This document shows, in pieces, positions 8,083 through 52,010 of a stretch of 64,000 bases of DNA. The stretch is taken from the IMG/VR virus record IMGVR_UViG_3300043694_000018, positions 1 to 64,000 of that record. One strand, 5' to 3'. Every line of letters starts with the position of its first letter. The stretch's first letter is position 1. The position numbers were made by a program, and so were the translations under genes. The notes beneath the pieces were generated by a model. It saw only the letters and a program-made list of their open reading frames with translations. It was not told the origin of the DNA and ran no database searches. The DNA is from a virus (lineage: Duplodnaviria > Caudoviricetes).

Positions 8083-8283
8083 ATGTACGAGCGCTCCGTC
8101 ATCCCCCATCCGGGGTTCCGCTTCTGGGCATCACGCGCGACGGTCCAGCAGGGCGTCGACATGGTCGAGGCCAACATCCGCGAGCAGAACATCGAGGTCG
8201 AGCCCGGCTATGACGCCGTGCTGATCACGATGTGCGCGCAGGCGCATGCGCTGTTCAAGATTGAACCTGCGGGGAACGCCTGA
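8083..8283 (+). CDS. Hypothetical protein
   Basis: AAGGAGG RBS; TGATG coupling to portal. Confidence 0.6.
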   Translation: MYERSVIPHPGFRFWASRATVQQGVDMVEANIREQNIEVEPGYDAVLITMCAQAHALFKIEPAGNA

Positions 8284-9929
8284 TGGCTGGCGAACTGAAG
8301 ATCACCAGTGCGATGGGCACTGCGCTCAGCGAACTGCTGACGCACAACGACGACATCCAGCCGGGTGCCGCGCTGAGCTACGACCTGTGCAAGAACATCT
8401 ACATTTTCCATCCGCTCGGCCGGAAGCTGGTCGAGAAGCCCATCGAGATCGCGCAGAGCCAGAAGCGCGAGGTCAGTGTGCCGAACTCGCCCGAGGAGCG
8501 CGTGAAGGAAGCGTTCGAGGATGAGTGGGAGCGGCTGCGCGTCGACACGCACATCATGAACCTCATGCGAATCGCGCGTGTATACGGCGTCGGCTCACTC
8601 GCTGTGGTTGAGGACGGCGTCGATGTGTCCAAGCCGCTCGACTACAACAAGGTCTACAAGGCGCAGATCGCGATCAACGCCTACGATCCGCTCAACACGG
8701 CGGGCTCGCTGGTGCTGCATCAGGACCCGCTGGCGATGGACTTCCAGCACGTCATGCAGATCGCGGTAAGCGGCCAGCCGTTCCATCGCACGCGCTCCAT
8801 CGTGCAGATGAACGAAGCGCCGATCTACATTCACTACACGGCGTCGGCCTACGGCTTCGTCGGCCGCAGCGTTTTCCAGCGCAGCCTGTTCCCGATGAAG
8901 TCGTTCCTGCGCACGATGGAGACCAACGATCTGGTGGCGACCAAGATCGGCGTGCTGGTGGCGAAGATCAAGCAGCCCGGCTCGATCATCAACAACGCGA
9001 TGATCAAGCTGTTCGGCCAGAAGCGTCAGGTAGTGAAGGAAGCGCAGACCGGCGGCGTGATCTCGATCAGCCCCGACGAGGCCATCGAGTCGCTGAACTT
9101 CCAGAACCTCGACGGGCCGATGGAGATCGTGCGCAAGTCGATCCTCGAAGACATCGCATCGGCGTGCGGCATGCCCGCGAAGATGCTGACCGAGGAGACG
9201 TTCGCCGAGGGATTTGGCGAGGGCACTGAAGACGCCAAGGCCATCGCCCGCTACATCGACGGCGTTCGGGAGGAGATGCAGCCGGTCTACGACTGGTTCG
9301 ACCGGCTGGTGATGTACCGGGCGTGGAACCCGGACTTCTACAAGACGATTCAGGCCGAGTACACGGAGTACGCCAACGTCGAGTTCGCGCAGGCGTTCTA
9401 CGAGTGGAAGAACAGCTTCACCACCAAGTGGCCATCGCTGCTCAAGGAGCCCGACAGCGAACTGGTCAAGGTGGACGAGGTCAAGCTGCGCGCGGTGCTG
9501 GCGTTCCTGCAACTGATGCTGCCGCAGGCCGACCCCGACAACAAAGCGCGGCTGATCGAATGGGCGGTCGACAACTTCAACAGCCTCAAGTTCCTGTTCG
9601 ATACGCCGCTCGAACTGGACTACGAGGAGTTGGCCAACTTCACGCCCGAGCCGCAGGTCATGCCCGGCATGGGCGCGCAGGGCGCACACGGTCCACCGGG
9701 CGGCGGCATGATGGGCGGTGGCAAGCCGGGCATGGGCGGCGGCGGTGGTGGCGGTGGCATGGGTGGCGGTGGCCAGAAGATGCAGGGCATGAGCTTCGGC
9801 AGCATGGCGCAGATGGGCCGCAGCCACGCCAACGACGCCGTCGACCGTCAGGTCGAGCAGTTCATGAGTGCAGTCGACCGCATGCTGGCGCGGCACAACA
9901 AGCCGCGCCTGCGCGTGGTCGAGAAGTGA
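8283..9929 (+). CDS. Portal protein (DUF1073-type) with Gly/Met-rich C-terminal tail
   Basis: Position after terL; ARVYG...L, IH.TR, ..IASACGMPAKML....AEGFGEGTEDA...Y...I motifs. Confidence 0.85.
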   Translation: MAGELKITSAMGTALSELLTHNDDIQPGAALSYDLCKNIYIFHPLGRKLVEKPIEIAQSQKREVSVPNSPEERVKEAFEDEWERLRVDTHIMNLMRIARVYGVGSLAVVEDGVDVSKPLDYNKVYKAQIAINAYDPLNTAGSLVLHQDPLAMDFQHVMQIAVSGQPFHRTRSIVQMNEAPIYIHYTASAYGFVGRSVFQRSLFPMKSFLRTMETNDLVATKIGVLVAKIKQPGSIINNAMIKLFGQKRQVVKEAQTGGVISISPDEAIESLNFQNLDGPMEIVRKSILEDIASACGMPAKMLTEETFAEGFGEGTEDAKAIARYIDGVREEMQPVYDWFDRLVMYRAWNPDFYKTIQAEYTEYANVEFAQAFYEWKNSFTTKWPSLLKEPDSELVKVDEVKLRAVLAFLQLMLPQADPDNKARLIEWAVDNFNSLKFLFDTPLELDYEELANFTPEPQVMPGMGAQGAHGPPGGGMMGGGKPGMGGGGGGGGMGGGGQKMQGMSFGSMAQMGRSHANDAVDRQVEQFMSAVDRMLARHNKPRLRVVEK

Positions 9930-9930
9930 T

Positions 9931-10800
9931 GTGGCGCGCCGTTTCCACATTGCGCGGGCTCGTCTCGGCACCCACACGCGCGACTTCATCGGCGTGCTCG
10001 CCGCTGCGGCCGAGGACTTCACGGCGAATGGCTACGACCGCGCTGAGCGACTGACCTTCTGGCAGCAGCAGCTACGTGCGGCGGCCGAGCGCTCAACGAT
10101 CCCCGAGCAGATCATGGAGGGCATGCTGCGCGCGTCGTTGCGGTCGATCTACGACAAGATGATCGAGCACGGCGGCATCCTGCGCCTGCATCCGGGCATC
10201 GGCGAGTTCACGCTGCGCAAGGTCAAGCCGCAACTGCATGCTGAACTGGAGCGGCGCGTCCACGCCAGCGCGCAACTGATCAAGCTCAACCGCGAGGAGA
10301 TGATCGAGAAGACGATGCGGCGCTTCAGCGGCTGGGCGACATCGATCCCGGCCGGTGGTGCGGCCGAGCCGCGCAAGAGCAAGAACGACATCAAGCGCGG
10401 CATCGCGGGGCTGAAGTTCAACGAGCGCCGCGTCATCATCGATCAGGGCCACAAGCTCACGAGTGCGATCAGCCAGACGATTGCCGAGGGCGGTGGCGCG
10501 CTGGGCGGCTACTGGTACAGCCACTGGCGACAGCCGGGCTACAACTACCGCGAGGACCACAAGGAACGCGACGAGGTGTTCTACGTGCAGCCCGACAACT
10601 GGGCGCTCAACGACGGGCTGATGAAGTACGGCGGGCACATCGGGATCGATGATCAAACGCTGCCGGGCGAGGAAGTGTTCTGCCGTTGCTTCTATCGCTA
10701 CGTCTACAACCTGACTGATCTGCCGGACGAGTGCCTGACCAAGAAGGGCCGCACCAAGCTCGAAGAAGCGCGCGCGTACATGGCGCGAGAGGAGGCGTGA
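9931..10800 (+). CDS. Minor head / head morphogenesis protein (MuF/gp7-like)
   Basis: GTG start after portal; IIDQGHKL, W.SHWR....YREDHKERD, PGEEVFCRC motif. Confidence 0.8.
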   Translation: MARRFHIARARLGTHTRDFIGVLAAAAEDFTANGYDRAERLTFWQQQLRAAAERSTIPEQIMEGMLRASLRSIYDKMIEHGGILRLHPGIGEFTLRKVKPQLHAELERRVHASAQLIKLNREEMIEKTMRRFSGWATSIPAGGAAEPRKSKNDIKRGIAGLKFNERRVIIDQGHKLTSAISQTIAEGGGALGGYWYSHWRQPGYNYREDHKERDEVFYVQPDNWALNDGLMKYGGHIGIDDQTLPGEEVFCRCFYRYVYNLTDLPDECLTKKGRTKLEEARAYMAREEA

Positions 10801-11352: not shown

Positions 11353-11799
11353 ATGAGGAACACGGACAAGGCCTACCTCGCAGGCATCATCGACGGCGAA
11401 GGCTGTGTGGGCATAGGGATTCGCAAGAGCGGATCGAGGCGAGGTCGCTACCTGACGCCAACCCTTCAAGTGACGAACACCCAGAAGGAACTCCTCGACT
11501 GGCTCTACAAACGATACGGCGGTGGCATCTACGCTCACCGCCAGACGAACCAACGCGGGCGTAAGCCGACTTGGTTGTGGTCGTGCGCTGGTCAGAAAGC
11601 GCTGGCGGCAATTCGAGATGCCAGACCGTACATGCTGCTGAAGTGTGAGCAAGCTGACATCCTGCTGGCATTGCCACGCTACTCGACCAAGGCCCGAGAC
11701 AAGCTCGGCCGCATCAAGGGTTCGATGACTGCGCGAGAGCATGCCGAGAACGACAACGTCATTGAACGGATACGCGCCCTCAACAAGCGAGGTGTGTGA
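11353..11799 (+). mobile_element. Free-standing LAGLIDADG homing endonuclease gene
   Basis: KAYLAGIIDGEGC motif followed by LQVTNT.KELLDWL...YGG; codon usage less GC3-biased than neighbours. Confidence 0.88.
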
Positions 11800-12218: not shown

Positions 12219-15200
12219 ATGGACGGCCTCGATCTCGCTGCCGACAAGCTCGACGCGCTGATCGCCCGGCTCGACTTCGATCCCAACGAGCCGCGCGATT
12301 CGCGTGGCCAGTGGACAACAGGCGCAGGCAGCAAGAAGGTCAACTACAAGGATGCGACGACCATCGGCGGCAAGATGGTCGACTTCGTCGTCAACCCGAC
12401 GATGGGCATGATCCGCTCGATGGTGCGCCACTCGGAGATACCCGCGCAGGGGATTCGGGTGATGCGCGACGACAGCGGGCACGTCATCGCATGGGATGCC
12501 TTCCATGGCATCCACGAGCAGATGGCAAGCGCGCTGGGCCACGCGGACAACGTGATCAAGGCAGAGCGCTCACCGCACAGCGACGACCGCGACATCTACG
12601 CCGAGGACGGCAAGCCGTGGATCGACTTCATCTCGCTCAACGCTGAGGGCAAGTTCGAGAGCGCGTTCGGTGAGCCGAAGGACTGGGCGACGCCTGACGA
12701 TGGCGTGCGCGCTGACGACTTCGATCCGAGCGAACCGCGTGATGAGGCAGGCAAGTGGACATCGGGCGGTGGCGGCAAGCGAGTGAACGTCGAGGACATC
12801 GTCAAGCTGCGCGACTATCACGGCGGCAAGGAGGTCAACGTCGTCATCAATCCGACCAAGGCCAAGATCGCCGAGATGGTGCGCAAGGTGCCTGACCCGT
12901 TCGAGGCCGAGGACGCTGGCGTGAGAGTGGTGCGCGCGAACGACGGCACGGTCTACGCATGGGACCCGCGAGACGCGATCCACGACACGATGCTGCAAGC
13001 GCTCGAAGCGCAGGGCGTCGATGTGTCGAAGACGCGGCAGAACCTCAAGGGTCAGGATGTCATCTACTACCACCCGAACAGCGGTGAACTGCACTCGGTG
13101 ATGAGCGAGCCCGAGGACTGGTACGCCGACGAGCCCGCGCCAAAGAAGATCGCCAATAGCTGGACCTCGTACAAGACGCCGAGCGGTGTCGATGTCGATG
13201 TCGTTGTCAACCCGACGCCTGACAACATCGAGGACCTGTCGAAGGAGAACAAGTGGAACGGGCGGGTCAGGTTCGTGCGCGACACGGACGGCAACATCTA
13301 CGCCGCGAGCGCGAGCAAGGCGATCCACGATTCGATCATCGGCGCGCTGGGCCTCAGCGTGGCGGACAAGACGGTGAGCGACCGCCAGTGGAACCAGTTC
13401 ATCTACGACCCGAAGCACCAGAAGGTTGGCGATCTGGTGAAGTGGGGCTGGGTGGCCGCTGATGCGTTCGATCCTGATGAGCCGCGCGATCCACGCGGGC
13501 GATGGACAGCCGGGCAGCGCGGCTTCATGGATGAGTTTCACGCGGGCACCGAGGAGCACCCGCTCGGCATGCCGGATCGCTTGCGCTATCTGCCGCAGAA
13601 CGAAGGGCAGGAGCAGACCAACCTCGTCGCGCTGCACGTGTCGCCATGGCAGGACGGCATCCATGTCCACTCGATCTTTGCGCCGGAGCCGAGGCAGGGG
13701 CAGGGAACGGCCGGGTTGAAGTGGCTGCACGAACTCGCCGACAAGCACAACGTACCGCTCGATGGCTTCGCCAAGGCCTACGGCGAGGGCGGCATGTCGA
13801 CGGCGCGGCTGAAGAAGTGGTACGCCAAGCACGGCTGGAAGGTGCAGCGCAGCGGCTCGATGAAGCGCCTGCCGCGTGGCAGCGCTGCTGACGACTATGA
13901 CCCGAGCGAACCGAGAGACGAATCGGGCAAGTGGACTGGGGGCGGTGGCGCGGGCAAGAAGCCCGAGGAGGATCGGTCAGGCCCGGAGTTCCACGAGCCC
14001 GAGGACATCCAGCGCGCGTTCGAGAACTACACGGGCAACGACATCACGCCGATGGATGCCGACTATGCGGGCACCGAGGGCGGCATCGGCTTCCTCGGCC
14101 CTGACGGCACGATGTGGAACATCGAGGGCAGCCACGCAGGCACGTCGCTGCGGCTCAACAAGGACCTGTGGGACATCTTCGAGGCGGGTTATCACCGCAT
14201 CTACGCCACGCCCGGCGACATGCTGGGCATCGAGGTCAACAACGAGAAGCCGCTGACGCCACAGCAGGTCAAGTTCGTGATCGACGCGGCGAGCCACGAG
14301 AAGTTCAAGAGCCTGTACATCGAGGGACAAGGCCACTTCTTCGGCAGGACGGGCAGCGACAAGTTCGAGCCGCCCGAGGGTGTGAACGCCAAGAACGCGC
14401 GGCGATACCTACGACAGCAGGGCATGATCGCGGCCGACGACGATGTGCTCGACGCCGCCGCCGACCGGCTCGATGCGCTGCTGACACGCTTGGACTGGGA
14501 GGAGAGTCAGCACCCGCGCGTGCCCGAGGGATCGAGCAAGGGCGGCCAGTTCACCAAGGGCGCGGGTGGCGCACCGGCCGAGGGCGAGAAGCCGAACGAA
14601 CTGGAGAAGCTGGTCGGCGAGTTCAAGAGCGTTGGCGAGCCGAAGGGCGAGCCCACGCCGTCGCAGATGTCGATCAGGCGCGTGATGCGCCGCCTCGGCG
14701 AGGCCGAGGAGATGATGAAGGAGGCGCGCGAGGTCGGGAACGAGGAGATGATCCCGCGCCTGCGCGAGGAGATCGGCAAGTTCCGCAAGCGCAAGCGTGA
14801 ACTGGACAAGATCGAGCACGACCGCGAGCGCGCAGAGCAGCAGGAGAAGTGGGACGACGCGCGCTCATACGACCGCACGCAGGCCGCCGTCGTGTTCATC
14901 GATGAGAAGGTGCAGGAACTGGTCAACTCCGGCGAGTGGCAGAAGCTCGATGACAAGGCGCGCATGGACAAGCGCGGCGAGTTCGAGTTGCAGTTCCTCG
15001 ACAAGGAGCCACCGCGCACCAAGCTCGACTATCTGGAGCAGGGCAAGCTGCTGACGCTGTGGGAGCGCGCTGACGACGAGACCAAGGAGGACGCCAAGAA
15101 CATCTTCATCCAAGAGAAGATGGATGCCCTCTATAAAGGGCAGGAGGTTCAGGACTTCGACAAGCACGAGGAGGCGAAGCAAAAGGCTTCGGCCGAGTTC

Positions 15201-17783
15201 GATGCGATGTCGCCGCGCGTGCGGCACACCTATCTGGAGAAGGCCGAGGCCAACCTGCCGAAGTCGTGGGACGAGCTTGGCGACGAACAGCAGGAGCAGG
15301 CGAAGGCGCGCTACGTGCGCAACAACCTGAAGCGTGCGGTCAACGAGGAGACATCGTACTGGCGCGAGCAGGGCGGCAACCTCGATGACGCCAAGCACAA
15401 GCTGGTGGGCGAGTTCAACGAGTACGATTCGACCATGCCGGAGTGGTTCGAGGAGGCGATGTCGGATGTCAACGAGCATCGGCTCCACACCGATCCACCG
15501 CATCCGCCGATCCCGTACACCAACGAGCAACTGTGGAAGGCGATCTCGCTCAGCTACGAGGGCGACGGTGCTGGCGGTGGCCCGCTCCGCGTCGAGTTCC
15601 TTGACGAGAACCTGCGCCATCCGAAGGACTACGATTCCAAGCAGCAGACGCTACCCGGCATCGAGCCCGAAGACCCGTCGAAGCGACTGACGCAGGAGAT
15701 GCGCGACGCGCTGGAGGTGCAGATCACCGACGCCTTCGACGCGCAGGCCGACAAGGATCAATACTCGGTGGAGCCCGACTACAACATGCTGGAGGAGAAC
15801 GCAGCGGAGCGGGTCAACATCGAGTGGGACGACCTCAATGATGACCAGAAGTTCGCGATGTTCCAAGGCCGCAAGCAGAAGCTCGGCATGCAGACCGAGA
15901 TGCGCGGCAAGACCGAGTGGCGCTATGTGCCGTTCACCGCCAAGGCGTGGAACCCCGGCGACCTGCCAGAGGGCGAATCGTACAGCGTCGAGACCGCCGT
16001 CGACCCGGATGCCCACGACATCGAGGACGTGATGCGGCACAGCCAGCGCGGCGTGATCCGGCTGGCGCGCATGAACGACGGCAAGACATACGTGTGGGAC
16101 GCCACGACCGTCACGCATCCCGAGATGATTCCCGAGCTTGGCTACAGCTACCCGGAGGACGTTGACGACACCGAGGTCGCGTGGGGCATGAGCGGCGTGC
16201 GCTACCTGCTGAACAACTGGGCACGCCACGACAGCCAGAGCCCGCGCATCGCCGCCGACGCGGTGTACCTGAAGTGGAACGACTCGATCATCCCGCCGCC
16301 GGGCTATCGCTTCCAGAGTTGGGTAGCGCGCGCCGACGCCTTCAACCCCAACGAACCGCGCGATCCGCAGGGGCGCTGGACCGAGGGCGGTGGCACGCTC
16401 TACCACGTCACGCACAGCCGCTACGGTGGCAGCATCAAGAAGAAGGGCATCGTGCCGTTGGGCGGCGAGGGCTCGAACTGGGTGAAGGGCACGGAGGAAG
16501 GCGAGCGCTACGGCGCTGGCGAGGTCTACGCCTTCGAGCACAAGGACGACGCGATTCGCTGGGCCGCGAAGATGGACTGGTCGTTCAACAAGGGCGACAG
16601 CGGCAAGGGCAAGATCAGCATCGTCCACATCAAGGGCCAGCAGGGCGACAAGTGGCTGGTCGATGAGTCTGATCCGCTCAGTCAGGCGACGGCCAAGGGC
16701 AAGTGGCTGAAGCGGCTCGACCCGGTCGACCGCAAGCGCATCGCCAAGGTCGAGCCTGTCACCAACGACATGGTGCGCGACATGCTCGCGCGCGAGCGCG
16801 CCGAGACACCGAAGGCGAAGGAAGCGCCCGGTTGGAGCTTCCCTGATGACGAGAACAAGTTCTGGAACGCCATACCGGGGATACTGAGCGGGCACGTCCA
16901 CAGCGAAGGGCCGTGGTTCGTCGCCGAAGGCGAGGGCTACAAGATCAAGTACAGCCGCCTCACCGACAACTGGACCGTCTCCGATCCGAAGAACGACAGC
17001 AACAAGTGGGCTGAGGGCATCGGCGTCTACAACCTGATGCAGTTCCTGAAGGACGACCCGAAGATCGGCAAGAAGGCGCAGGCGTGGATCGACAAGGACA
17101 AGCAGGAGCACGCCGCCACGCTGGCCGAAAAGCTCAAGCACTTCCGCTCGACCGCTGAGGAGATGGGCAAGCGCGCCAACTTCGATACGTCGAAGATCAA
17201 GTTCGGGGAGGTCGCGCCCGACTACGTGCTGAACGGCAGGCACTTCAAGGCGGCCGGTGTCGCCAACCTCGGCAGCGGCGAGATCACGCTCTACCCCGGT
17301 GCGGAGTCGAGCGAGGAGTTCTTCCGGGGCGTGGTGGCGCACGAGATGGAGCACCAAAAGTTCCAGTTCTTCCTCGATGAGCAGAGCCGCGAACTGGAGG
17401 AGATCATCAAGCTGCCCAAGCCCGAGCGGCGGCGCGATGACCCGATGAAGCCGGACGGCACGCTGCGCACACCCGAGCTTCGCGAGAAGTACCCGGCCTA
17501 CTCGGCCTACACCGAGATCATCGGCAAGCACTACGACGAACTGAAGGAGGAGGACGGCGTCACCAAGTACAGCCGCGAATGGTGGCAGGCCTACAACAAC
17601 AAGACGGCCAACATCGAGCAGGCGTGGCACGAGACGATGGCCGAGATCGCCTTCCTGATGCACAAGGACGAGGAGGGCTCGAAGGTCAGTCGCAACTGGA
17701 ACAAGCTGTTCAACACCGTCAATCAAATCTGGAACGACCGCCACACGCAGGGCATGCGCACGTCGGGAGTGCCCGGCCCATGA
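12219..17783 (+). CDS. Giant modular (polyvalent) head-associated protein: 6 leader repeats, GNAT, ART-like, HExxH zincin, 4x unknown domain
   Basis: 1854-aa ORF with strong codon bias; motifs detailed in findings. Confidence 0.85.
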   Translation: MDGLDLAADKLDALIARLDFDPNEPRDSRGQWTTGAGSKKVNYKDATTIGGKMVDFVVNPTMGMIRSMVRHSEIPAQGIRVMRDDSGHVIAWDAFHGIHEQMASALGHADNVIKAERSPHSDDRDIYAEDGKPWIDFISLNAEGKFESAFGEPKDWATPDDGVRADDFDPSEPRDEAGKWTSGGGGKRVNVEDIVKLRDYHGGKEVNVVINPTKAKIAEMVRKVPDPFEAEDAGVRVVRANDGTVYAWDPRDAIHDTMLQALEAQGVDVSKTRQNLKGQDVIYYHPNSGELHSVMSEPEDWYADEPAPKKIANSWTSYKTPSGVDVDVVVNPTPDNIEDLSKENKWNGRVRFVRDTDGNIYAASASKAIHDSIIGALGLSVADKTVSDRQWNQFIYDPKHQKVGDLVKWGWVAADAFDPDEPRDPRGRWTAGQRGFMDEFHAGTEEHPLGMPDRLRYLPQNEGQEQTNLVALHVSPWQDGIHVHSIFAPEPRQGQGTAGLKWLHELADKHNVPLDGFAKAYGEGGMSTARLKKWYAKHGWKVQRSGSMKRLPRGSAADDYDPSEPRDESGKWTGGGGAGKKPEEDRSGPEFHEPEDIQRAFENYTGNDITPMDADYAGTEGGIGFLGPDGTMWNIEGSHAGTSLRLNKDLWDIFEAGYHRIYATPGDMLGIEVNNEKPLTPQQVKFVIDAASHEKFKSLYIEGQGHFFGRTGSDKFEPPEGVNAKNARRYLRQQGMIAADDDVLDAAADRLDALLTRLDWEESQHPRVPEGSSKGGQFTKGAGGAPAEGEKPNELEKLVGEFKSVGEPKGEPTPSQMSIRRVMRRLGEAEEMMKEAREVGNEEMIPRLREEIGKFRKRKRELDKIEHDRERAEQQEKWDDARSYDRTQAAVVFIDEKVQELVNSGEWQKLDDKARMDKRGEFELQFLDKEPPRTKLDYLEQGKLLTLWERADDETKEDAKNIFIQEKMDALYKGQEVQDFDKHEEAKQKASAEFDAMSPRVRHTYLEKAEANLPKSWDELGDEQQEQAKARYVRNNLKRAVNEETSYWREQGGNLDDAKHKLVGEFNEYDSTMPEWFEEAMSDVNEHRLHTDPPHPPIPYTNEQLWKAISLSYEGDGAGGGPLRVEFLDENLRHPKDYDSKQQTLPGIEPEDPSKRLTQEMRDALEVQITDAFDAQADKDQYSVEPDYNMLEENAAERVNIEWDDLNDDQKFAMFQGRKQKLGMQTEMRGKTEWRYVPFTAKAWNPGDLPEGESYSVETAVDPDAHDIEDVMRHSQRGVIRLARMNDGKTYVWDATTVTHPEMIPELGYSYPEDVDDTEVAWGMSGVRYLLNNWARHDSQSPRIAADAVYLKWNDSIIPPPGYRFQSWVARADAFNPNEPRDPQGRWTEGGGTLYHVTHSRYGGSIKKKGIVPLGGEGSNWVKGTEEGERYGAGEVYAFEHKDDAIRWAAKMDWSFNKGDSGKGKISIVHIKGQQGDKWLVDESDPLSQATAKGKWLKRLDPVDRKRIAKVEPVTNDMVRDMLARERAETPKAKEAPGWSFPDDENKFWNAIPGILSGHVHSEGPWFVAEGEGYKIKYSRLTDNWTVSDPKNDSNKWAEGIGVYNLMQFLKDDPKIGKKAQAWIDKDKQEHAATLAEKLKHFRSTAEEMGKRANFDTSKIKFGEVAPDYVLNGRHFKAAGVANLGSGEITLYPGAESSEEFFRGVVAHEMEHQKFQFFLDEQSRELEEIIKLPKPERRRDDPMKPDGTLRTPELREKYPAYSAYTEIIGKHYDELKEEDGVTKYSREWWQAYNNKTANIEQAWHETMAEIAFLMHKDEEGSKVSRNWNKLFNTVNQIWNDRHTQGMRTSGVPGP
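15126..15141. promoter_or_regulatory. Palindromic site GCCCT-CTATAA-AGGGC (intragenic)
   Basis: Perfect match to genome-wide motif. Confidence 0.65.
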
Positions 17784-19954
17784 TCGAGCGCGTGATGCTC
17801 AACAACAAGATGGGCACCGTGGTCTACCTCAACGCCGCGATGCTGCCGACCGACAAGGACAAGGCGAAGGCCATCAAGGTCCACTTCGATGACGGCACGA
17901 TCACCTTCGCCACGCTCCAGCCAGACACCGTGCCGACGCCGAAGCGCTGGGTGAACCCGAACACGCCGTCGCCCTATGGCATGAGCGGGCGGCTCGACTG
18001 GGACGAGTCACAGCACCCGCGCGGCCAGCCAGCGAACAAGGGCCAGTTCGTCACTCGGGGCGGCGCGGCGATGGGCATGACCATCGGCAAGGCGGGCGAG
18101 GGACTGTACACGGCGCAGATCGACGGCAAGTACGCAGGGCACGCCCAGCTTGCCAGCGAGGGCCATCCGTTCGTGTCGGCGCTGCACGTGCCCGAGGAGC
18201 ACAGCGGCAAGGGCGTCGGCCACGCGCTGTACGATCACATCGAGAAGCAGACGGGCAAGTCGATGGTGCCCAATCCGCTGCATCTCACCGAGCAGCACGC
18301 GGAGATTTGGAAGAAGCGGCTGAGTGATATGGGCGCGGCCGAGGCCAAGCGGCGGCTCACCGAGGCGCGCACCATCGGCTACAAGAACTTCGGCCAGAAG
18401 TACACGACGACGGACAAGCTGCACATGCCGCTGCGGGAGGTCGCGGGCAAGGCGCAGCATCCGGGCGAGGGTTACAGCGAGAACGCCTTCGTGGACGGCA
18501 AGGGCCGCATCCACACCAACAACATCTACGACGCCACGCGCGCGCTGTACGAGAAGCGCGATGTCGTGCTGGCGCAGCCGCGCGAGGTGTCGACGCTGCT
18601 CGATCACCTCCAGAAGGTCTCGGCCGAGTTCATCCGGCTGGGCAGCAAGGCTCCGGTGTTCGACCTGTGCAAGGTCAGCGTCGAGGGCACCAACCTGTTC
18701 TGCGTCGGCTCGATGGGCATCCCGCGCGTGAAGATGCCGCAACTCGACAAGGAGATGACCAAGAAGTTCCTGCACTTCCTGCAAGCCAAGGGCTACGAGG
18801 TCACGGACGAGGAGGAGTTCGCCAGCTACCTGCGCGCGACGCAGAACGAACTGAACGGGGCCAAGGTGGCGGGCATCGCCAACGCGATGCTGACCGGCAA
18901 GTTCGAGGAGGGCCGCAACCCGCGACTGGTGATCAGCCGCGACAACTACATCCTCGACGGGCATCACCGCTGGGCAGCGCTGGTCGGCGTCGATGCGCTG
19001 AACAACCAGTTCGGCGACAAGCTCATGAAGGTGAGCCGGGTCGGCATCGGCATCACCGACCTGTTGCGCGAGGCTGAGGAGTTCGGCGTGCCGACCGGCG
19101 AGGGCGTCGAGGTGATGTCGAAGGAGGAGGCGGCGCAGTCGGGCGGCAAGGCGACTGGCACGCCCAAGACCGGAGCACCAGCGACGAAGCAGCCCGACAA
19201 GCACGGCTACGAGTTCGTGTCGCCCAACGTCAAGGACCTCAAGTTCAAGGACGCCGTGGCGTCGCTCGAAGGCGACCGGCACAAGTACATCACCGCGCTC
19301 AGCGAGCAGGTCGACAAGGAACTGGGGCTGAAGGGCACGACCAAGCCGGTGCTCGGCGTCTGGACCGATGGCGCGGAGAACTCGACCATGACGACCTACA
19401 CCAACCCGACGTGGCAGCAACTGGTGGCGTCGGCCTCGATGAAGGGGCATCTGGCGAACCAGAAGCAGGTCCTGATCTTCAACGAGGGCGACATCGATGC
19501 TGGCCACGGCGACGAGGGCTTCCTCGCGTCGTTCCCGGTGAAAGGCGACATGAAGGAGGTGTCGGACTGGCTGGGCCAGAACGGGCTGATCTACCACACG
19601 CTTGAACCGACGAAAGACGGCGCTATCGTCCACGTCTACGGCAGCGATGACGCCACCATGCAGGCCGTGAAGGCCGCAGGAGACCACTATGGCACGACCG
19701 TCCAAGCCGGTGTCGGACGAGGAGCCTTCCTCGGCAGCTTCAAAGAAGGAGCCGACGACGAGCAGCGCGCAGACGCCCGCGCCGTCTATGAGCGAGAGAT
19801 TGAAGGCGCTGGGCTTCAAGGTGCGTCGGCCGTCTGGAAAGGGCTACGTGATCGGTACGGGTGGGCCAACAAAGCAGCCACCGGAAGCCAAGCAGTAGCA
19901 CGTGCTGACGCACGCCCTAGAAACAGGGCATTGCAGTTTGCGGTATCCCCATGA
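17780..19954 (+). CDS. Second modular protein: leader repeat, GNAT-like, ParB/Srx-like domain
   Basis: ATGA overlap; RLDWDESQHPRG...GQF; VPEEHSGKGVGHALY (GNAT motif A); ISRDNYILDGHHRWAA (ParB/Srx-like). Confidence 0.8.
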   Translation: MIERVMLNNKMGTVVYLNAAMLPTDKDKAKAIKVHFDDGTITFATLQPDTVPTPKRWVNPNTPSPYGMSGRLDWDESQHPRGQPANKGQFVTRGGAAMGMTIGKAGEGLYTAQIDGKYAGHAQLASEGHPFVSALHVPEEHSGKGVGHALYDHIEKQTGKSMVPNPLHLTEQHAEIWKKRLSDMGAAEAKRRLTEARTIGYKNFGQKYTTTDKLHMPLREVAGKAQHPGEGYSENAFVDGKGRIHTNNIYDATRALYEKRDVVLAQPREVSTLLDHLQKVSAEFIRLGSKAPVFDLCKVSVEGTNLFCVGSMGIPRVKMPQLDKEMTKKFLHFLQAKGYEVTDEEEFASYLRATQNELNGAKVAGIANAMLTGKFEEGRNPRLVISRDNYILDGHHRWAALVGVDALNNQFGDKLMKVSRVGIGITDLLREAEEFGVPTGEGVEVMSKEEAAQSGGKATGTPKTGAPATKQPDKHGYEFVSPNVKDLKFKDAVASLEGDRHKYITALSEQVDKELGLKGTTKPVLGVWTDGAENSTMTTYTNPTWQQLVASASMKGHLANQKQVLIFNEGDIDAGHGDEGFLASFPVKGDMKEVSDWLGQNGLIYHTLEPTKDGAIVHVYGSDDATMQAVKAAGDHYGTTVQAGVGRGAFLGSFKEGADDEQRADARAVYEREIEGAGLQGASAVWKGLRDRYGWANKAATGSQAVARADARPRNRALQFAVSP
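19914..19929. promoter_or_regulatory. Palindromic site GCCCT-AGAAAC-AGGGC (upstream of Nudix-DUF2213 start)
   Basis: Perfect match. Confidence 0.65.
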
Positions 19955-21915
19955 TCCGCGCCGCCGGGGTGCTGATCCTGAGCGCGGACGGTCGCGTGCT
20001 GTTCCTCAAGCGCTCGAAGTCGGGGGACATGCCGGGCAAGTGGTGCTTCCCCGGCGGCAAGATCGAGGACGACGAGACGCCCGAAGAAGCTGCCATCCGC
20101 GAACTGGACGAGGAAGCAGGCGTCAGTGCCAAGCCAGAGCACCTGACGTTCTGGACGCGCCGGGTCGCGGCTGACGCAGGCCCGGAGGAGGTCGACTTCA
20201 CCACGTTCATCGTGCGCAACGTGGTCGAGTTCGAGCCGTACCTCGATCAGGAGCACACCGCCTACCTGTGGGCTGAGCCGAACCGCGCCCCGCGCCCGCT
20301 CCACCCCGGTTGCCAGATCAGCGTCGACCGGCTGGACATGGACGAGCTTGACGTGGCGCGCGCGATCAAGGACGGCGACCTTCACGGCCCACAGCAGTAC
20401 GAGAACATCTGGCTGTTCCCGATGCGCATCACCGGGACCGGCATGGCCTTCCGCCACAAGTGGGAGGAGTACGTCTGGCGCGATCCCGCGCTCTATCTCA
20501 ATGACAATTTCTTGCAGCGTTGCAATGGCCTGCCCGTCATCCTCGAACACCCATCAACGTCGGTGCTGACCACCGACGAGTTCAAGGACCGCACAGTCGG
20601 CACGGTCATGCTGCCCTACATTAAGGGCGACGAGGTCTGGGGCATCACGAAAATCTACGACGCGGACGCCGCGCACATCCTGCTCACGGAGCAGTTGAGC
20701 ACGTCACCGGCCGTGGTGTGGCGTGACCCGGACGTGAACGCTGAGAAGGAGATGGAGAACGGCCAGACATACCTGATCGAGGGAAAGCCCAGCCTCCTCG
20801 ATCACCTTGCGATTTGTAAGCAGGGCGTCTGGGACAAAGGCGGGAAACCCGAAGGTATAGACCTAGGAGGTCTGATCATGCCAGAGAACAGCAAGATCGC
20901 CGCCGACGACACCAGCAAGGGCGGCAGTGGAATCGAGCGCCTGCTCAAGGGGCTCGATGCGATGGCGTTGAAGCTCGACAGCTTCACGTCGCGCATGGAC
21001 TCGGTCGAGGCGCAGGTCGCGAAGGTCCTCAAGTCCCGCAAGGACGACGATGATCGCGCCGACGCAGGTCCGCCGGGCGACGGCAAGCCTGTGCCGCCGA
21101 TGCCGGGTCCGGGCGCACCGCCGGGCGACGGCAAGCCCGCGCCCGTGGCAGCCGACAAGCGCAAGGACGCGGACGGCAAGCCGTTCCCCGGTGCCGCGCC
21201 GCCGATCCAAGGCAAGGGTCCGCCGTCACCGCCGCCTGCCGCCAAGGCCGACGAGGGCGATGGCGACGACAAGGACAAGAAGGACGACCTGCCGCCGTTC
21301 ATGAAGAAGGCGGACGACGAGAAGGAGCCCAACGAGGACCCGACCGCGCAGGGTCGTGGCGACGAGGGCAGCGAGAAGACCCACTTCCCGGCCAAGCCGA
21401 TCACCGGGGCCGACGCGGCCAAGCGTGACGCCGACCTCAACGCGCTCAAGAAGGAGATCGCCGAGCTTCGGCTGCGCATCCCCAAGGATCGCTCAGACGC
21501 CGACGCCGCCCAGATGGCCGAGGATCAGGCACGCTGCGACAGCGTCGCCATGCTGTTCGGCACGTCAGCGCCGCGCCCGCTCGCGGGCGAGACCCGGCCA
21601 GCGTACCGGCTGCGCATCTTGGAGCCGTTCAAGAAGCACAGCCCGCAGTGGCAGAATGTCGACGTTCAGGTCGTCGCCGTCGATGAGGCCGCGCTCAACG
21701 TGGTCGAGCATCAAATCTACGAGGCGGCACGGATCGCCGCTCGTGATCCCGCCAGCGTCCCGGTCGGCACGCTGCGGGCCGTCACCATGCGCACGCCCAC
21801 AGGCCACATCGAGACGAAGTTCATGGGGTCGCCGAGCGCGTGGCTCAATCGTCATGCGGGCAACTCGCGGGCCTTCGTGACGGCGCTCAACCTCAAGTCG
21901 CCGACTGCAAACTGA
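19951..21915 (+). CDS. Nudix hydrolase fused to DUF2213-type prohead protease/scaffold
   Basis: Nudix box FPGGKIEDDETPEEAAIRELDEEAG; R.G.......R....L....L....NG.PV..EHP, DHLAIC..G (DUF2213); acidic/Pro-rich scaffold-like tail. Confidence 0.82.
   Translation: MIRAAGVLILSADGRVLFLKRSKSGDMPGKWCFPGGKIEDDETPEEAAIRELDEEAGVSAKPEHLTFWTRRVAADAGPEEVDFTTFIVRNVVEFEPYLDQEHTAYLWAEPNRAPRPLHPGCQISVDRLDMDELDVARAIKDGDLHGPQQYENIWLFPMRITGTGMAFRHKWEEYVWRDPALYLNDNFLQRCNGLPVILEHPSTSVLTTDEFKDRTVGTVMLPYIKGDEVWGITKIYDADAAHILLTEQLSTSPAVVWRDPDVNAEKEMENGQTYLIEGKPSLLDHLAICKQGVWDKGGKPEGIDLGGLIMPENSKIAADDTSKGGSGIERLLKGLDAMALKLDSFTSRMDSVEAQVAKVLKSRKDDDDRADAGPPGDGKPVPPMPGPGAPPGDGKPAPVAADKRKDADGKPFPGAAPPIQGKGPPSPPPAAKADEGDGDDKDKKDDLPPFMKKADDEKEPNEDPTAQGRGDEGSEKTHFPAKPITGADAAKRDADLNALKKEIAELRLRIPKDRSDADAAQMAEDQARCDSVAMLFGTSAPRPLAGETRPAYRLRILEPFKKHSPQWQNVDVQVVAVDEAALNVVEHQIYEAARIAARDPASVPVGTLRAVTMRTPTGHIETKFMGSPSAWLNRHAGNSRAFVTALNLKSPTAN
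20613..20628. promoter_or_regulatory. Palindromic site GCCCT-ACATTA-AGGGC (intragenic)
   Basis: Perfect match. Confidence 0.6.
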
Positions 21916-22553: not shown

Positions 22554-23576
22554 ATGGCACTGCAAGCGCCAGCCTTTGTGACGGTCAACCCGTCGCTGAT
22601 CGAGCCCGATCTCATCCTCCCCTACGCGCAGGCATCCGGTGCCTTCGATTGCCTCGAAGGTGGCGAGCCTCGCATCAAGCTGGGCGAGGGCGATCTCTAC
22701 GTCTACATGAAGCGCGTCGACCTGCGCACGTCGATGGCGGCTGGACCGGCCAGCTACAACAGCCTGCCGGGCGTGAACATCGCGTTCTCGCAAATCCAGA
22801 CGCCGACGTACCTGTTGCAGGTGCGCTCGATGTACAATCACCACGATCAGGCCGCCGCCCAGAATTGGGGCGTGTCCCTGCCGGAGGCGTACCGGCTCGG
22901 CATGCGGCAGGGTCACTTCCAGTTGGCCCGCAACGCTCTGCTCTACGGCTTCAATCCGCAGAACGGCGAGGGCTTGGTCAACACGGCGGGCGCAGTCGCC
23001 GTCAACCTGCCAGCGGATTCGCTGGGGAACACCACCGTCTCGACCTACGACAACGGTCAGATGGCGTTCTTCTTCCTCCAGCAAATCCAGTTCCTGAAGG
23101 CCCGGACCAACCAACTGGGCATCGGGCGCAAGTTCACCATCCTCGGGCCGCAGCGCACGCTCGGGCTGATGGAGTACCAGAGCGTCGTGCAGTTGACCCA
23201 GTACCAGCGACAGGGTGCGGGCTCGGCGACCACGGCGACGCTGATCAAGGAAATCCTGATGTCGAACGGCGATTCGATCATCTGGGCCTACGACGACACG
23301 CTGATCGGCAAGGGCGCGGGCGGCAACGACGCCGTCATCATCGCGATGCCGGAGGTCGAGAAGCCCAAGGAGACCGGGATCAACACCAACGAGTTCGCCA
23401 AGCTCTCGCCGGGCAACGACTCGTGCATCACGATGTACGGCGACCAGTCCGCTCCCAAGGAGATCACCTCGCCGATGGCGGGCGGCATGACCGACGTACT
23501 GAGCGAGTGGCGCATCACCTCGGGCTGGGCAGTCCGGCCGGAGTGCATCACCATCTGCTCGATGCAGTATCAGTGA
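22554..23576 (+). CDS. Major capsid protein (DUF2184-like)
   Basis: 340 aa, strong RBS and position; L.YGF...GEGL.N, terminal SGW.VRPE motif. Confidence 0.8.
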   Translation: MALQAPAFVTVNPSLIEPDLILPYAQASGAFDCLEGGEPRIKLGEGDLYVYMKRVDLRTSMAAGPASYNSLPGVNIAFSQIQTPTYLLQVRSMYNHHDQAAAQNWGVSLPEAYRLGMRQGHFQLARNALLYGFNPQNGEGLVNTAGAVAVNLPADSLGNTTVSTYDNGQMAFFFLQQIQFLKARTNQLGIGRKFTILGPQRTLGLMEYQSVVQLTQYQRQGAGSATTATLIKEILMSNGDSIIWAYDDTLIGKGAGGNDAVIIAMPEVEKPKETGINTNEFAKLSPGNDSCITMYGDQSAPKEITSPMAGGMTDVLSEWRITSGWAVRPECITICSMQYQ

Positions 23577-51642: not shown

Positions 51643-52010
51643 TGCGGCAAGTTCGATTCGGTGTAGCCGAAGCGCTCCATCAGTGCGTGACGACAGTTCT
51701 CGATCTGCACGAGGAACAGGCGCTCCCAGAAGAAGTCGGAGCGGACCATCCGGTCGAGCAGCTTCTCGTTGTGCCGGTGCTGCGCCTCCTCCCACATCAT
51801 GGCGTAAGCGCGCGCTTCGATCATGGTCTCGCGGTCGTACAGCGTCTCCGGCAGCTTGATGCCGCGCTCGCGCAAGGCCTTGATGGCGCTCCCGGCCGCT
51901 GCGATCACTTGCTGCTCGTTGAGCACCGGCCCGCTCATCGGCGTCAGGCTCTGCGTCGCGACGAACTCCAGCATGTCCTTCGGCGGCTTCGGCAGATCGT
52001 TCGTGCTCAT
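51639..52010 (-). CDS. Hypothetical protein
   Basis: GGAGG RBS. Confidence 0.6.
   Translation of the reverse strand: MSTNDLPKPPKDMLEFVATQSLTPMSGPVLNEQQVIAAAGSAIKALRERGIKLPETLYDRETMIEARAYAMMWEEAQHRHNEKLLDRMVRSDFFWERLFLVQIENCRHALMERFGYTESNLPQ

Follow-up and report, generated by a model that had tools for sequence, protein, structure and literature searches.

Results

Head genes and the cargo insert

The window analysed here is the first 64 kb (positions 1 to 64,000) of the 79,317-base uncultivated viral record IMGVR_UViG_3300043694_000018, and our subject is a short peptide that recurs seven times at the module borders of two large proteins encoded among the head genes. Each copy can be read as a two-part junction, in which a few residues that vary with the phage lineage are followed by a core peptide conserved across many phages. 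All positions below are those of the window, and all features lie on the plus strand unless stated otherwise.

The head module (8.3-23.6 kb) comprises a portal protein (8283..9929; Pfam Phage_portal_3 1.7e-15, phrog_146 3.9e-54), a MuF-like head morphogenesis protein (9868..10800), a protein combining NUDIX, a DUF2213 prohead protease of predicted gp21 fold and a scaffold-like tail (19951..21915; Pfam NUDIX 3.7e-21, DUF2213 1.4e-4), a 204-amino-acid protein and the major capsid protein (22554..23576; Pfam Major_capside 1.2e-6, phrog_6671 1.2e-142). The MuF-like label rests on phrog_324 ('head morphogenesis', 1.9e-24) and on gp3 of Klebsiella phage Chronis, which has the same position; despite the PHROG match, no Pfam MuF (PF04233) match was obtained for this open reading frame. 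Two cargo genes sit between the portal/MuF-like and the protease/capsid genes, in a virion block of the portal/terminase type. The open reading frame at 12219..17783 encodes the 1854-amino-acid polyvalent protein P0001, which carries six junction motifs and whose modules have homologues shuffled among other motif-bearing proteins. Gene 2 (17780..19954) encodes 724 amino acids with an N-terminal domain termed P2N, the seventh junction, a GNAT domain, a ParB-like module and a C-terminal module; its start is most likely the ATG at 17780, overlapping the P0001 stop (ATGA), and not 17579. The initial annotation of this sequence had described module chains of the polyvalent type in a head-morphogenesis block, and Pfam, PHROG and the neighbouring genes agree with it.

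The closest cultured relatives of the capsid protein, at 42-56% identity, are found in Klebsiella phage Chronis, Yersinia vB_YenM phages, Shewanella QDWS and Escherichia Rac-SA53. Chronis, YenM_29.18, QDWS and Rac-SA53 have the identical head gene order, with the MuF-like gene followed directly by the (NUDIX-)protease gene. Because these two genes adjoin in the cultured relatives, the segment at 10.8-19.95 kb is regarded as an insert. Neither the region nor P0001 gave a match in cultured phages by blastn or tblastn. An HNH endonuclease gene (11353..11799; phrog_5046 1.1e-27) lies inside the insert between the MuF-like and the cargo genes, in the region missing from related phages.

Seven junction copies in the window

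A regular expression placed the seven copies exactly at 12276, 12720, 13467, 13896, 14496, 16341 and 17999, all in coding frames, that is, six in P0001 and a seventh in the next gene, where the initial annotation had located them. One further match of the regular expression in six frames, at 51794 on the minus strand, was without the remainder of the motif, and a profile of the seven copies searched against the whole record returned just these seven (E 2e-21 to 1e-14). Pro, Arg and Gly are invariant across all copies, and two forms of the core can be distinguished: form A reads [FYW]-x-P-x-[EQ]-P-R-D-x-x-G-[KR]-W-T and form B, the H-type, reads W-[DE]-E-x-x-H-P-R...G-x-F, each followed by a Gly-rich linker. 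The linker was originally ascribed to every unit; it is present after six of the seven, whereas copy 3 has just 'AGQRG'. The copies vary at synonymous sites and have no long exact DNA in common, and therefore what selection has preserved is the peptide rather than its DNA.

Junction 1 (RLD|FDPNEPRDSRGQWT) is preceded by an N-terminal amphipathic helix, DKLDALIARLD, the two together spanning 12243..12317; in many phages similar Ala/Arg/Leu helices stand ahead of the first motif copy. The cores of junctions 2 (12720..12761), 3 (13467..13508) and 4 (13896..13937) follow RADD, AADA and AADD, respectively. Junction 5, with an H-type core (WEESQHPR...GGQFT), directly follows a second copy of the helix, DRLDALLTRLD (14463..14555 together). 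The core of junction 6 (16341..16382) follows RADA, and junction 7 in gene 2 (17999..18052) has an H-type core after GRLD. As the N-terminal helix (12243-12275) recurs internally (14463-14495) directly before junction 5, the sequence suggests that P0001 may be an end-to-end fusion of two cargo genes. The triplet [RA][LA]D was observed 13 times in P0001 against 3.0 expected, and it is absent from the portal, the MuF-like protein and the major capsid protein of the window.

The core peptide in other phages

The profile of the seven copies matched 1,598 protein cluster representatives at E<=1e-3 among 1.84 billion proteins. In the 150 best-scoring of these clusters, 2-17 copies were present per protein, and the copies of multi-copy proteins were mostly about 150-400 amino acids apart. 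In addition, a degenerate DNA pattern for D-P-x-E-P-R-D-x-x-G-x-W was found in at least 119 viral contigs, where we roughly estimate a chance expectation of about 1. Residues outside the pattern are conserved as well, with an aromatic residue (F or Y) ahead of D-P in 120/120 cases and Thr after the W in 99/120; Asp/Glu and Gly-Gly-Gly come next. Both core forms (F-D-P-x-E-P-R-D...W and W-x-E-x-x-H-P-R...F) occur together in single proteins of other phages. Prophage copies were found in Alphaproteobacteria, Actinobacteria, Planctomycetota, Acidobacteria, Chloroflexota, Gemmatimonadota and Bdellovibrionales, by our count at least seven phyla; Lichenibacterium ramalinae and Streptomyces sp. are among the matches.

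The proteins that carry the motif contain ART-PolyVal, exotoxin-type ART, MuF, Zeta toxin, GNAT, Acb1, NUDIX and topoisomerase IB (TopoIB) domains; ART-PolyVal matches account for 7/48 and 3/82 of the motif-sharing relatives. With a local profile, MuF was detected in 38 of the 150 top motif proteins, at any position and often with a motif 10-60 residues after it. On viral contigs the motif is also fused behind portal domains of three Pfam families, MuF, DUF2213 and Peptidase_S78, and the neighbours of motif genes are portals, terminases (TerL) and capsid proteins of several families, DUF2213 being rare among them. The initial annotation had tied the leader peptide to DUF2213. That tie is not borne out for the core motif, which occurs with three portal families, two capsid families and S78 and S78_2 proteases, and in genomes without a DUF2213-type protease.

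The proposed cassette logic fared better: homologues of the window's modules stand at varied positions in other proteins, are shuffled between them and usually have a motif 10-30 residues ahead of their start. Of the 10 homologues of module B, 9 have a motif no more than 60 residues upstream, as do 37/51 ParB-like homologues (median 18.5), and 17 of the 21 homologues of the C-terminal module also begin shortly after a copy. Some genes with a single module begin directly with M-A-F-D-P or M-P-F-D-P, which fits a function of the core at the module N-terminus. By these sequence comparisons the core peptide is a general module header and not particular to this phage. Separately, in four contigs (L019:1351-1500; also L050, L070 and L102) there is a switch of reading frame within the Gly-rich linker that follows the motif, and the next module continues in the new frame from an internal ATG; a split gene, a frameshift or an error of assembly could account for this.

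The flank before the core follows the protease lineage

The 2-3 residues before the aromatic residue are specific to each protein. Identity at position -1 was 0.67 within proteins versus 0.20 between them and at position -2 it was 0.39 versus 0.10, while positions -6 to -8 and those beyond the linker gave about 0.1 both within and between proteins. The flanks fall into classes such as [VIL]-x-K, K-[AED], x-D / D-A and A-A-[ED], and across the family Lys, Ala, Gly, Arg or Asp precedes the aromatic, with Asp in the minority. A flank nearly fixed within proteins and varying between them is what would be expected of protease subsites co-evolving with the enzyme of each phage.

In the window the flank is [RA]-[LA]-D-(A/D). 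We fetched 80 viral loci with the same protease type as the window (52-80% identity), 14 of which carry the motif. All 17 copies in these 14 loci have Asp at most three residues before the aromatic, compared with 24-26% in general sets, and an [LA]-D flank was present in 76% of the same-protease copies versus 5-6% in the general sets. The Asp site claimed by the initial annotation thus holds among phages with this protease, and it recurs as [KR]-x-D in the scaffold, whereas family-wide an Asp before the core is the exception. On this comparative footing the Asp-site reading is strengthened, and the Asp element before the motif is a real, conserved feature of this protease lineage.

The DUF2213 protease and its scaffold

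The AlphaFold 2 (AF2) model of the DUF2213 domain, built from 32 homologues, has a mean predicted local distance difference test (pLDDT) score of 81.9. Its best structural match is T4 gp21 (5jbl_A; Z 10.4, root-mean-square deviation 2.5 A, 128/165 residues), followed by herpesvirus proteases (varicella-zoster virus protease, Z 7.7); the top Foldseek matches are herpesvirus proteases and gp21 as well (probability 0.87-0.99). The model therefore supports an assignment of DUF2213 as a prohead protease of the T4 gp21 / herpesvirus assemblin fold. H200, S250/S252 and H285 are invariant or nearly so in sets of 32 and 66 homologues, and H200, S252 and H285 are candidate catalytic residues.

All the x-x-D motifs that had been listed earlier for the protease/scaffold protein are present, and at three [KR]-x-D sites the Asp is near-invariant in the 66 homologues: K-A-D directly after the protease domain, at the protease/scaffold boundary (20896-20910), R-[MV]-D-[SA] where the scaffold begins (20992-21003) and [KR]-A-D-S near the C-terminal domain of the scaffold (21532-21543). 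Compared with the cargo flanks, these sites yield a consensus common to scaffold/protease and cargo, as a sequence pattern only. Acidic P1 residues are known for this fold, since gp245 of phage SPN3US cuts at AXE, a motif described as 'reminiscent' of T4 gp21 (PMC7411985). By analogy, cutting after Asp rather than Glu would be a plausible, modest variation.

In two related loci (L189 and L195) the protease polyprotein itself is arranged as a short N-terminal peptide, K-A-D-A-E|F with the core, a Gly linker and an R-S-E-type ART, after which A-R-A-D-S or A-K-A-D-S without a core precedes NUDIX and the protease. ART and NUDIX both stand ahead of the head protease there (L189:4882-7400, L195:4876-6970), while in the window NUDIX is fused to the protease and the ART-like module lies in the cargo; the two recur together in this phage lineage. 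The NUDIX fusion of the window (19951-20301) is shared by L001, L165 and L166 and by Chronis, YenM_29.18 and QDWS. The Rac-SA53 protease is without NUDIX, and NUDIX is accordingly an optional passenger on the protease.

Modules of the two cargo proteins

P0001 consists of at least eight segments between and around its six junctions, each with different homologues. Pfam gave no match to P0001, even with single modules at E<=5, and sequence searches of solved structures found no relatives of P0001, gene 2 or the motif profile, the protease protein being matched in its NUDIX part only.

The module with the clearest identity is module F (16851..17780), a lethal-factor-like zincin metallopeptidase with HEMEH at 17340-17354 (amino acids 1708-1712) and HETMAE at 17628-17645; HEMEH and the downstream HETxAE are conserved in 11-12 homologues (alignment A6). 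Its AF2 model has pLDDT values of 75-98, and structural matching with VIA-align returned the catalytic domain of anthrax lethal factor (1yqy_A, Z 9.8 over 180 residues), the Pro-Pro endopeptidase PPEP-3 (Z 6.5), ArdC (Z 5.7) and many other zincins (Z 5-7). Foldseek on a model of modules E and F together found nothing at E<=0.001, the unfolded E half having interfered. HExxH and the downstream Glu on a zincin fold, as modelled, confirm F as a zincin.

In 11 of 12 loci the zincin ends its gene and the next gene begins with P2N (about 50 amino acids, MIERVxVDGR...KVxFDDG), often with an ATGA overlap, followed by the motif (16851-17929 in the window); proteins P0007 and P0084 contain both parts in a single chain. 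The loci listed with this pair are the window, L064, L038, L056, L037, L013, L080, L109, L100, L029 and L061. A complex prediction for the zincin (amino acids 1590-1854) with the gene 2 N-terminus (P2N and junction 7) scored 0.05 against a mark of 0.32, which speaks neither for nor against binding.

Besides the zincin, the GNAT domain of gene 2 was upheld by Pfam (amino acids 105-157; Acetyltransf_1, 22.3 bits versus a cut-off of 20.7). The ART-like, second GNAT-like and ParB-like labels remain leads. Module B (13509..13895, amino acids 431-559) may be GNAT-like from Atlas matches to clusters in which 12-16% of the members have Acetyltransf. Module E (16383..16853, amino acids 1389-1545) may be ART-like from Atlas matches (0.90) to PARP and Tox-ART-HYD1 clusters; it had no Pfam match and an AF2 pLDDT below 50. 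The putative ParB/Srx-like module of gene 2 (HPGEGYS...DGHHRW; 18458..19099, amino acids 226-440) owes its label to DGHHRW, to the unnamed phrog_2859 (1.1e-24) and to distant tblastn matches in 418 phage records, with no Pfam ParB match.

A domain of about 215 amino acids without assigned function (15216..15866, P0001 amino acids 1000-1216) has 36 homologues in our local sets, 30 of them in viral loci; these are found in motif-bearing proteins, usually about 70 or about 200 residues after a motif. Another domain, of about 80-110 amino acids (V-x-N-P-T ... G-V-R-V-x-R ... Y-A-W-D-A ... I-H), occurs in four copies in P0001, at 12318-13466 and about 16056-16340, and also in a few other motif-bearing proteins, with no match in Pfam or PHROG.

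Discussion

A two-part junction and its proposed processing

The explanation that we favour, with a little better than even confidence, is that the cargo insert encodes chains of shuffled modules with two-part junctions, in which the Asp site would be cut by the phage's own gp21-fold protease and the core would serve as a handling tag. The analysis establishes the anatomy of the junctions, their distribution, the folds and the lineage association; packaging, cleavage and the tag function are inferred. The segment at 10.8-19.95 kb would be a cargo insert in the head module encoding two polyvalent proteins of shuffled effector modules (the repeated domain without assigned function, GNAT-like, ART-like, lethal-factor-like zincin, ParB-like and others), and every module border would carry a junction. 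Its first part would be the 2-4 lineage-specific residues [RA]-[LA]-D-(A/D), which match the [KR]-x-D triplets of the phage's own protease/scaffold, and the maturation protease would most likely cut after this Asp, inside the prohead. The second part, the core with its Gly-rich linker, which is conserved across phages with unrelated head genes, would then become the new N-terminus of the released module. Because a prohead protease acts inside the assembled prohead, internal copies are not needed to bring each module in, and the targeting leader that the initial annotation gave to every module would be logically superfluous. Because of its distribution the core cannot be a DUF2213-specific signal. 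Our best guess is that the core is a post-cleavage handling tag, for retention, ejection, uptake or turnover, and not an entry ticket for each module.

Several points weigh against this explanation. First, the 17 copies behind the Asp association come from related phages and represent roughly 10 distinct sequence contexts, and shared descent alone can yield such an association with no involvement of the protease. Flanks of the K and E types were not linked to protease families either, as five context look-ups gave no protease gene. Second, the conserved Asp residues of the scaffold could be structural. Third, the scaffold [KR]-x-D sites stand without the core motif; cutting therefore does not require the core, whose function this explanation does not account for. 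Fourth, P0001 and gene 2 contain no portal or MuF domain that would explain their entry into the head. Finally, some polyvalent virion proteins are packaged uncut, such as the virion RNA polymerase (vRNAP) of phage N4 in the account of PMC5512222.

Alternative explanations

The last of these points also speaks for the strongest alternative, that no cleavage takes place and the chains are packaged and ejected intact, like beads on a string. The motif and linker would then form a conserved element between domains, such as a point that docks on a head or portal component or a handle by which the chain is threaded through the tail, and the Asp flank would simply be the version of this lineage. Such a role would suit a core that is conserved whatever the protease family, and since MuF, a portal-bound head protein, is embedded anywhere in the motif proteins that have it, with modules on both sides, one anchor could carry a whole chain. 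However, modules fused behind portal or protease domains could not exit the virion uncut, the [KR]-x-D triplet recurs at core-less module borders and at the protease/scaffold boundary, and protein-specific residues at -1 and -2 suit a protease subsite better than a universal docking peptide. We consider intact delivery a serious possibility, though one with clearly the smaller share of our belief.

A second alternative keeps the cleavage and changes the enzyme: following the MPTase autoprocessing idea that Iyer et al. set out (PMC5512222), the zincin module F might cut the junctions in cis or in trans, with no part for the prohead protease. F itself is intact, a zincin of the lethal-factor type that has HExxH and, further downstream, a conserved Glu; Pro-Pro endopeptidases, enzymes that cut linear motifs rich in Pro, are among its structural neighbours; and the end of its gene is coupled to the start of a gene with P2N and the motif in nearly all the loci described above. 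Nevertheless, an F-type zincin was present in just 13/119 of the motif loci listed and 20/150 of the top motif proteins, no peptidase family is common in the Pfam tallies of carriers, and cutting by the zincin leaves the match between flank and protease lineage unexplained. We thus consider it improbable that the zincin is the junction protease. That the motif is a dedicated partner of F was likewise weakened, F being found in only 11-13% of the carriers. Self-cleavage at Asp-Pro was considered too and was dropped, as the D or the P is replaced by N, S or E in many copies.

It is scarcely credible, lastly, that the repeats are DNA-level recombination signposts for domain cassettes with no function as peptides: motif-flanked modules are clearly shuffled between proteins, but the synonymous variation among the seven copies and their lack of long exact DNA in common argue otherwise, as does the conservation of the peptide across phyla and codon usages.

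Implications

According to a prediction made in 2017, phages package their polyvalent proteins and these are cut to give active effectors; both the cut site and the cutter remained open. The window and its relatives offer a defined site, [KR]-x-D just before a conserved peptide, and a candidate enzyme, the protease of T4 gp21 fold. The protease-cut two-part junction predicts that other phages keep the core and vary the flank to suit the protease that each of them encodes. If it is true, sequence could reveal the borders of modules and the N-termini of mature effectors for thousands of uncultivated phages. The core peptide would then be a candidate tag with which foreign proteins might be loaded into phage heads or released, and what a 14-residue peptide of such wide conservation does would be a well-posed question.

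A bolder extension, which we put forward as a long shot, would make the junction a programmable two-part code in phages of many phyla, with a variable P-side for each protease ([VIL]-x-K, A-A-E, [KR]-A-D and others) and a universal peptide that sets the fate or lifetime of each injected effector in the host via an N-degron or an ejection handle. The N-degron is suggested by the first core residue, which is always F, Y or W and would be a classical bacterial N-degron residue once exposed; this part is speculative.

Comparison with known systems

The two cargo proteins resemble the polyvalent proteins described by Iyer, Burroughs, Anand, de Souza and Aravind (2017; PMC5512222), which likewise combine many unrelated effector domains in one polypeptide, are encoded among genes of the portal/terminase type, include zincin, ART, ParB-like and GNAT-type modules and were predicted to be packaged and processed. 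They differ in two respects. The account in PMC5512222 assigns the processing to MPTase domains, whereas in the window the junction flank follows the prohead protease lineage; and none of Pfam's PolyVal models (ART-PolyVal, MPTase-PolyVal, LPD etc.) matches either protein of the window. The MuF polymorphic toxins (Jamet et al., 2017; PMC5576092) are also similar, with a variable effector attached to a head-associated domain beside the portal gene. As described there, a single C-terminal toxin stands behind an N-terminal MuF, whereas the MuF-like gene of the window is separate and the cargo has at least six modules. Term searches of these two papers found no junction motif in either.

The internal proteins and Alt of phage T4 and the ejection proteins of giant phages (PMC7411985; PMC10052503) share with the window cargo that is encoded with the head genes, the same protease fold and a short consensus with acidic P1 that recurs in scaffold, protease and cargo. 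T4 discards its targeting peptide, which is N-terminal to the cut, whereas the conserved peptide of the window follows the putative cut on its C-terminal side and would remain attached to the module. The window further differs from T4 in having a multi-module chain, a site at each border and a putative P1 Asp instead of Glu. The Dar proteins of phage P1 (DarA, DarB and DdrB; PMC9024508, PMC12810830, PMC5512222) are large anti-host head proteins as well, some of them proteolytically processed, and DdrB has ParB-like and zincin domains like the proteins described here. They differ in being separate proteins loaded in a defined order with no known repeated junction peptide, and our comparison found no sequence similarity between the two systems.

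A short conserved peptide at the border before swappable toxin modules is also present in CdiA, as the VENN motif. Pre-toxin motifs of the VENN type differ from the junction of the window in sequence, in delivery machinery and in having one junction per protein and not one per module. A large-scale literature search with the literal motif strings gave no match, and no published description was found. The feature itself is real and statistically solid. Its kind is known, both as virion-associated polyvalent effectors and as protease-processed head cargo, and what is apparently new and so far undescribed is a universal junction peptide combined with a lineage-specific, probably protease-matched site.

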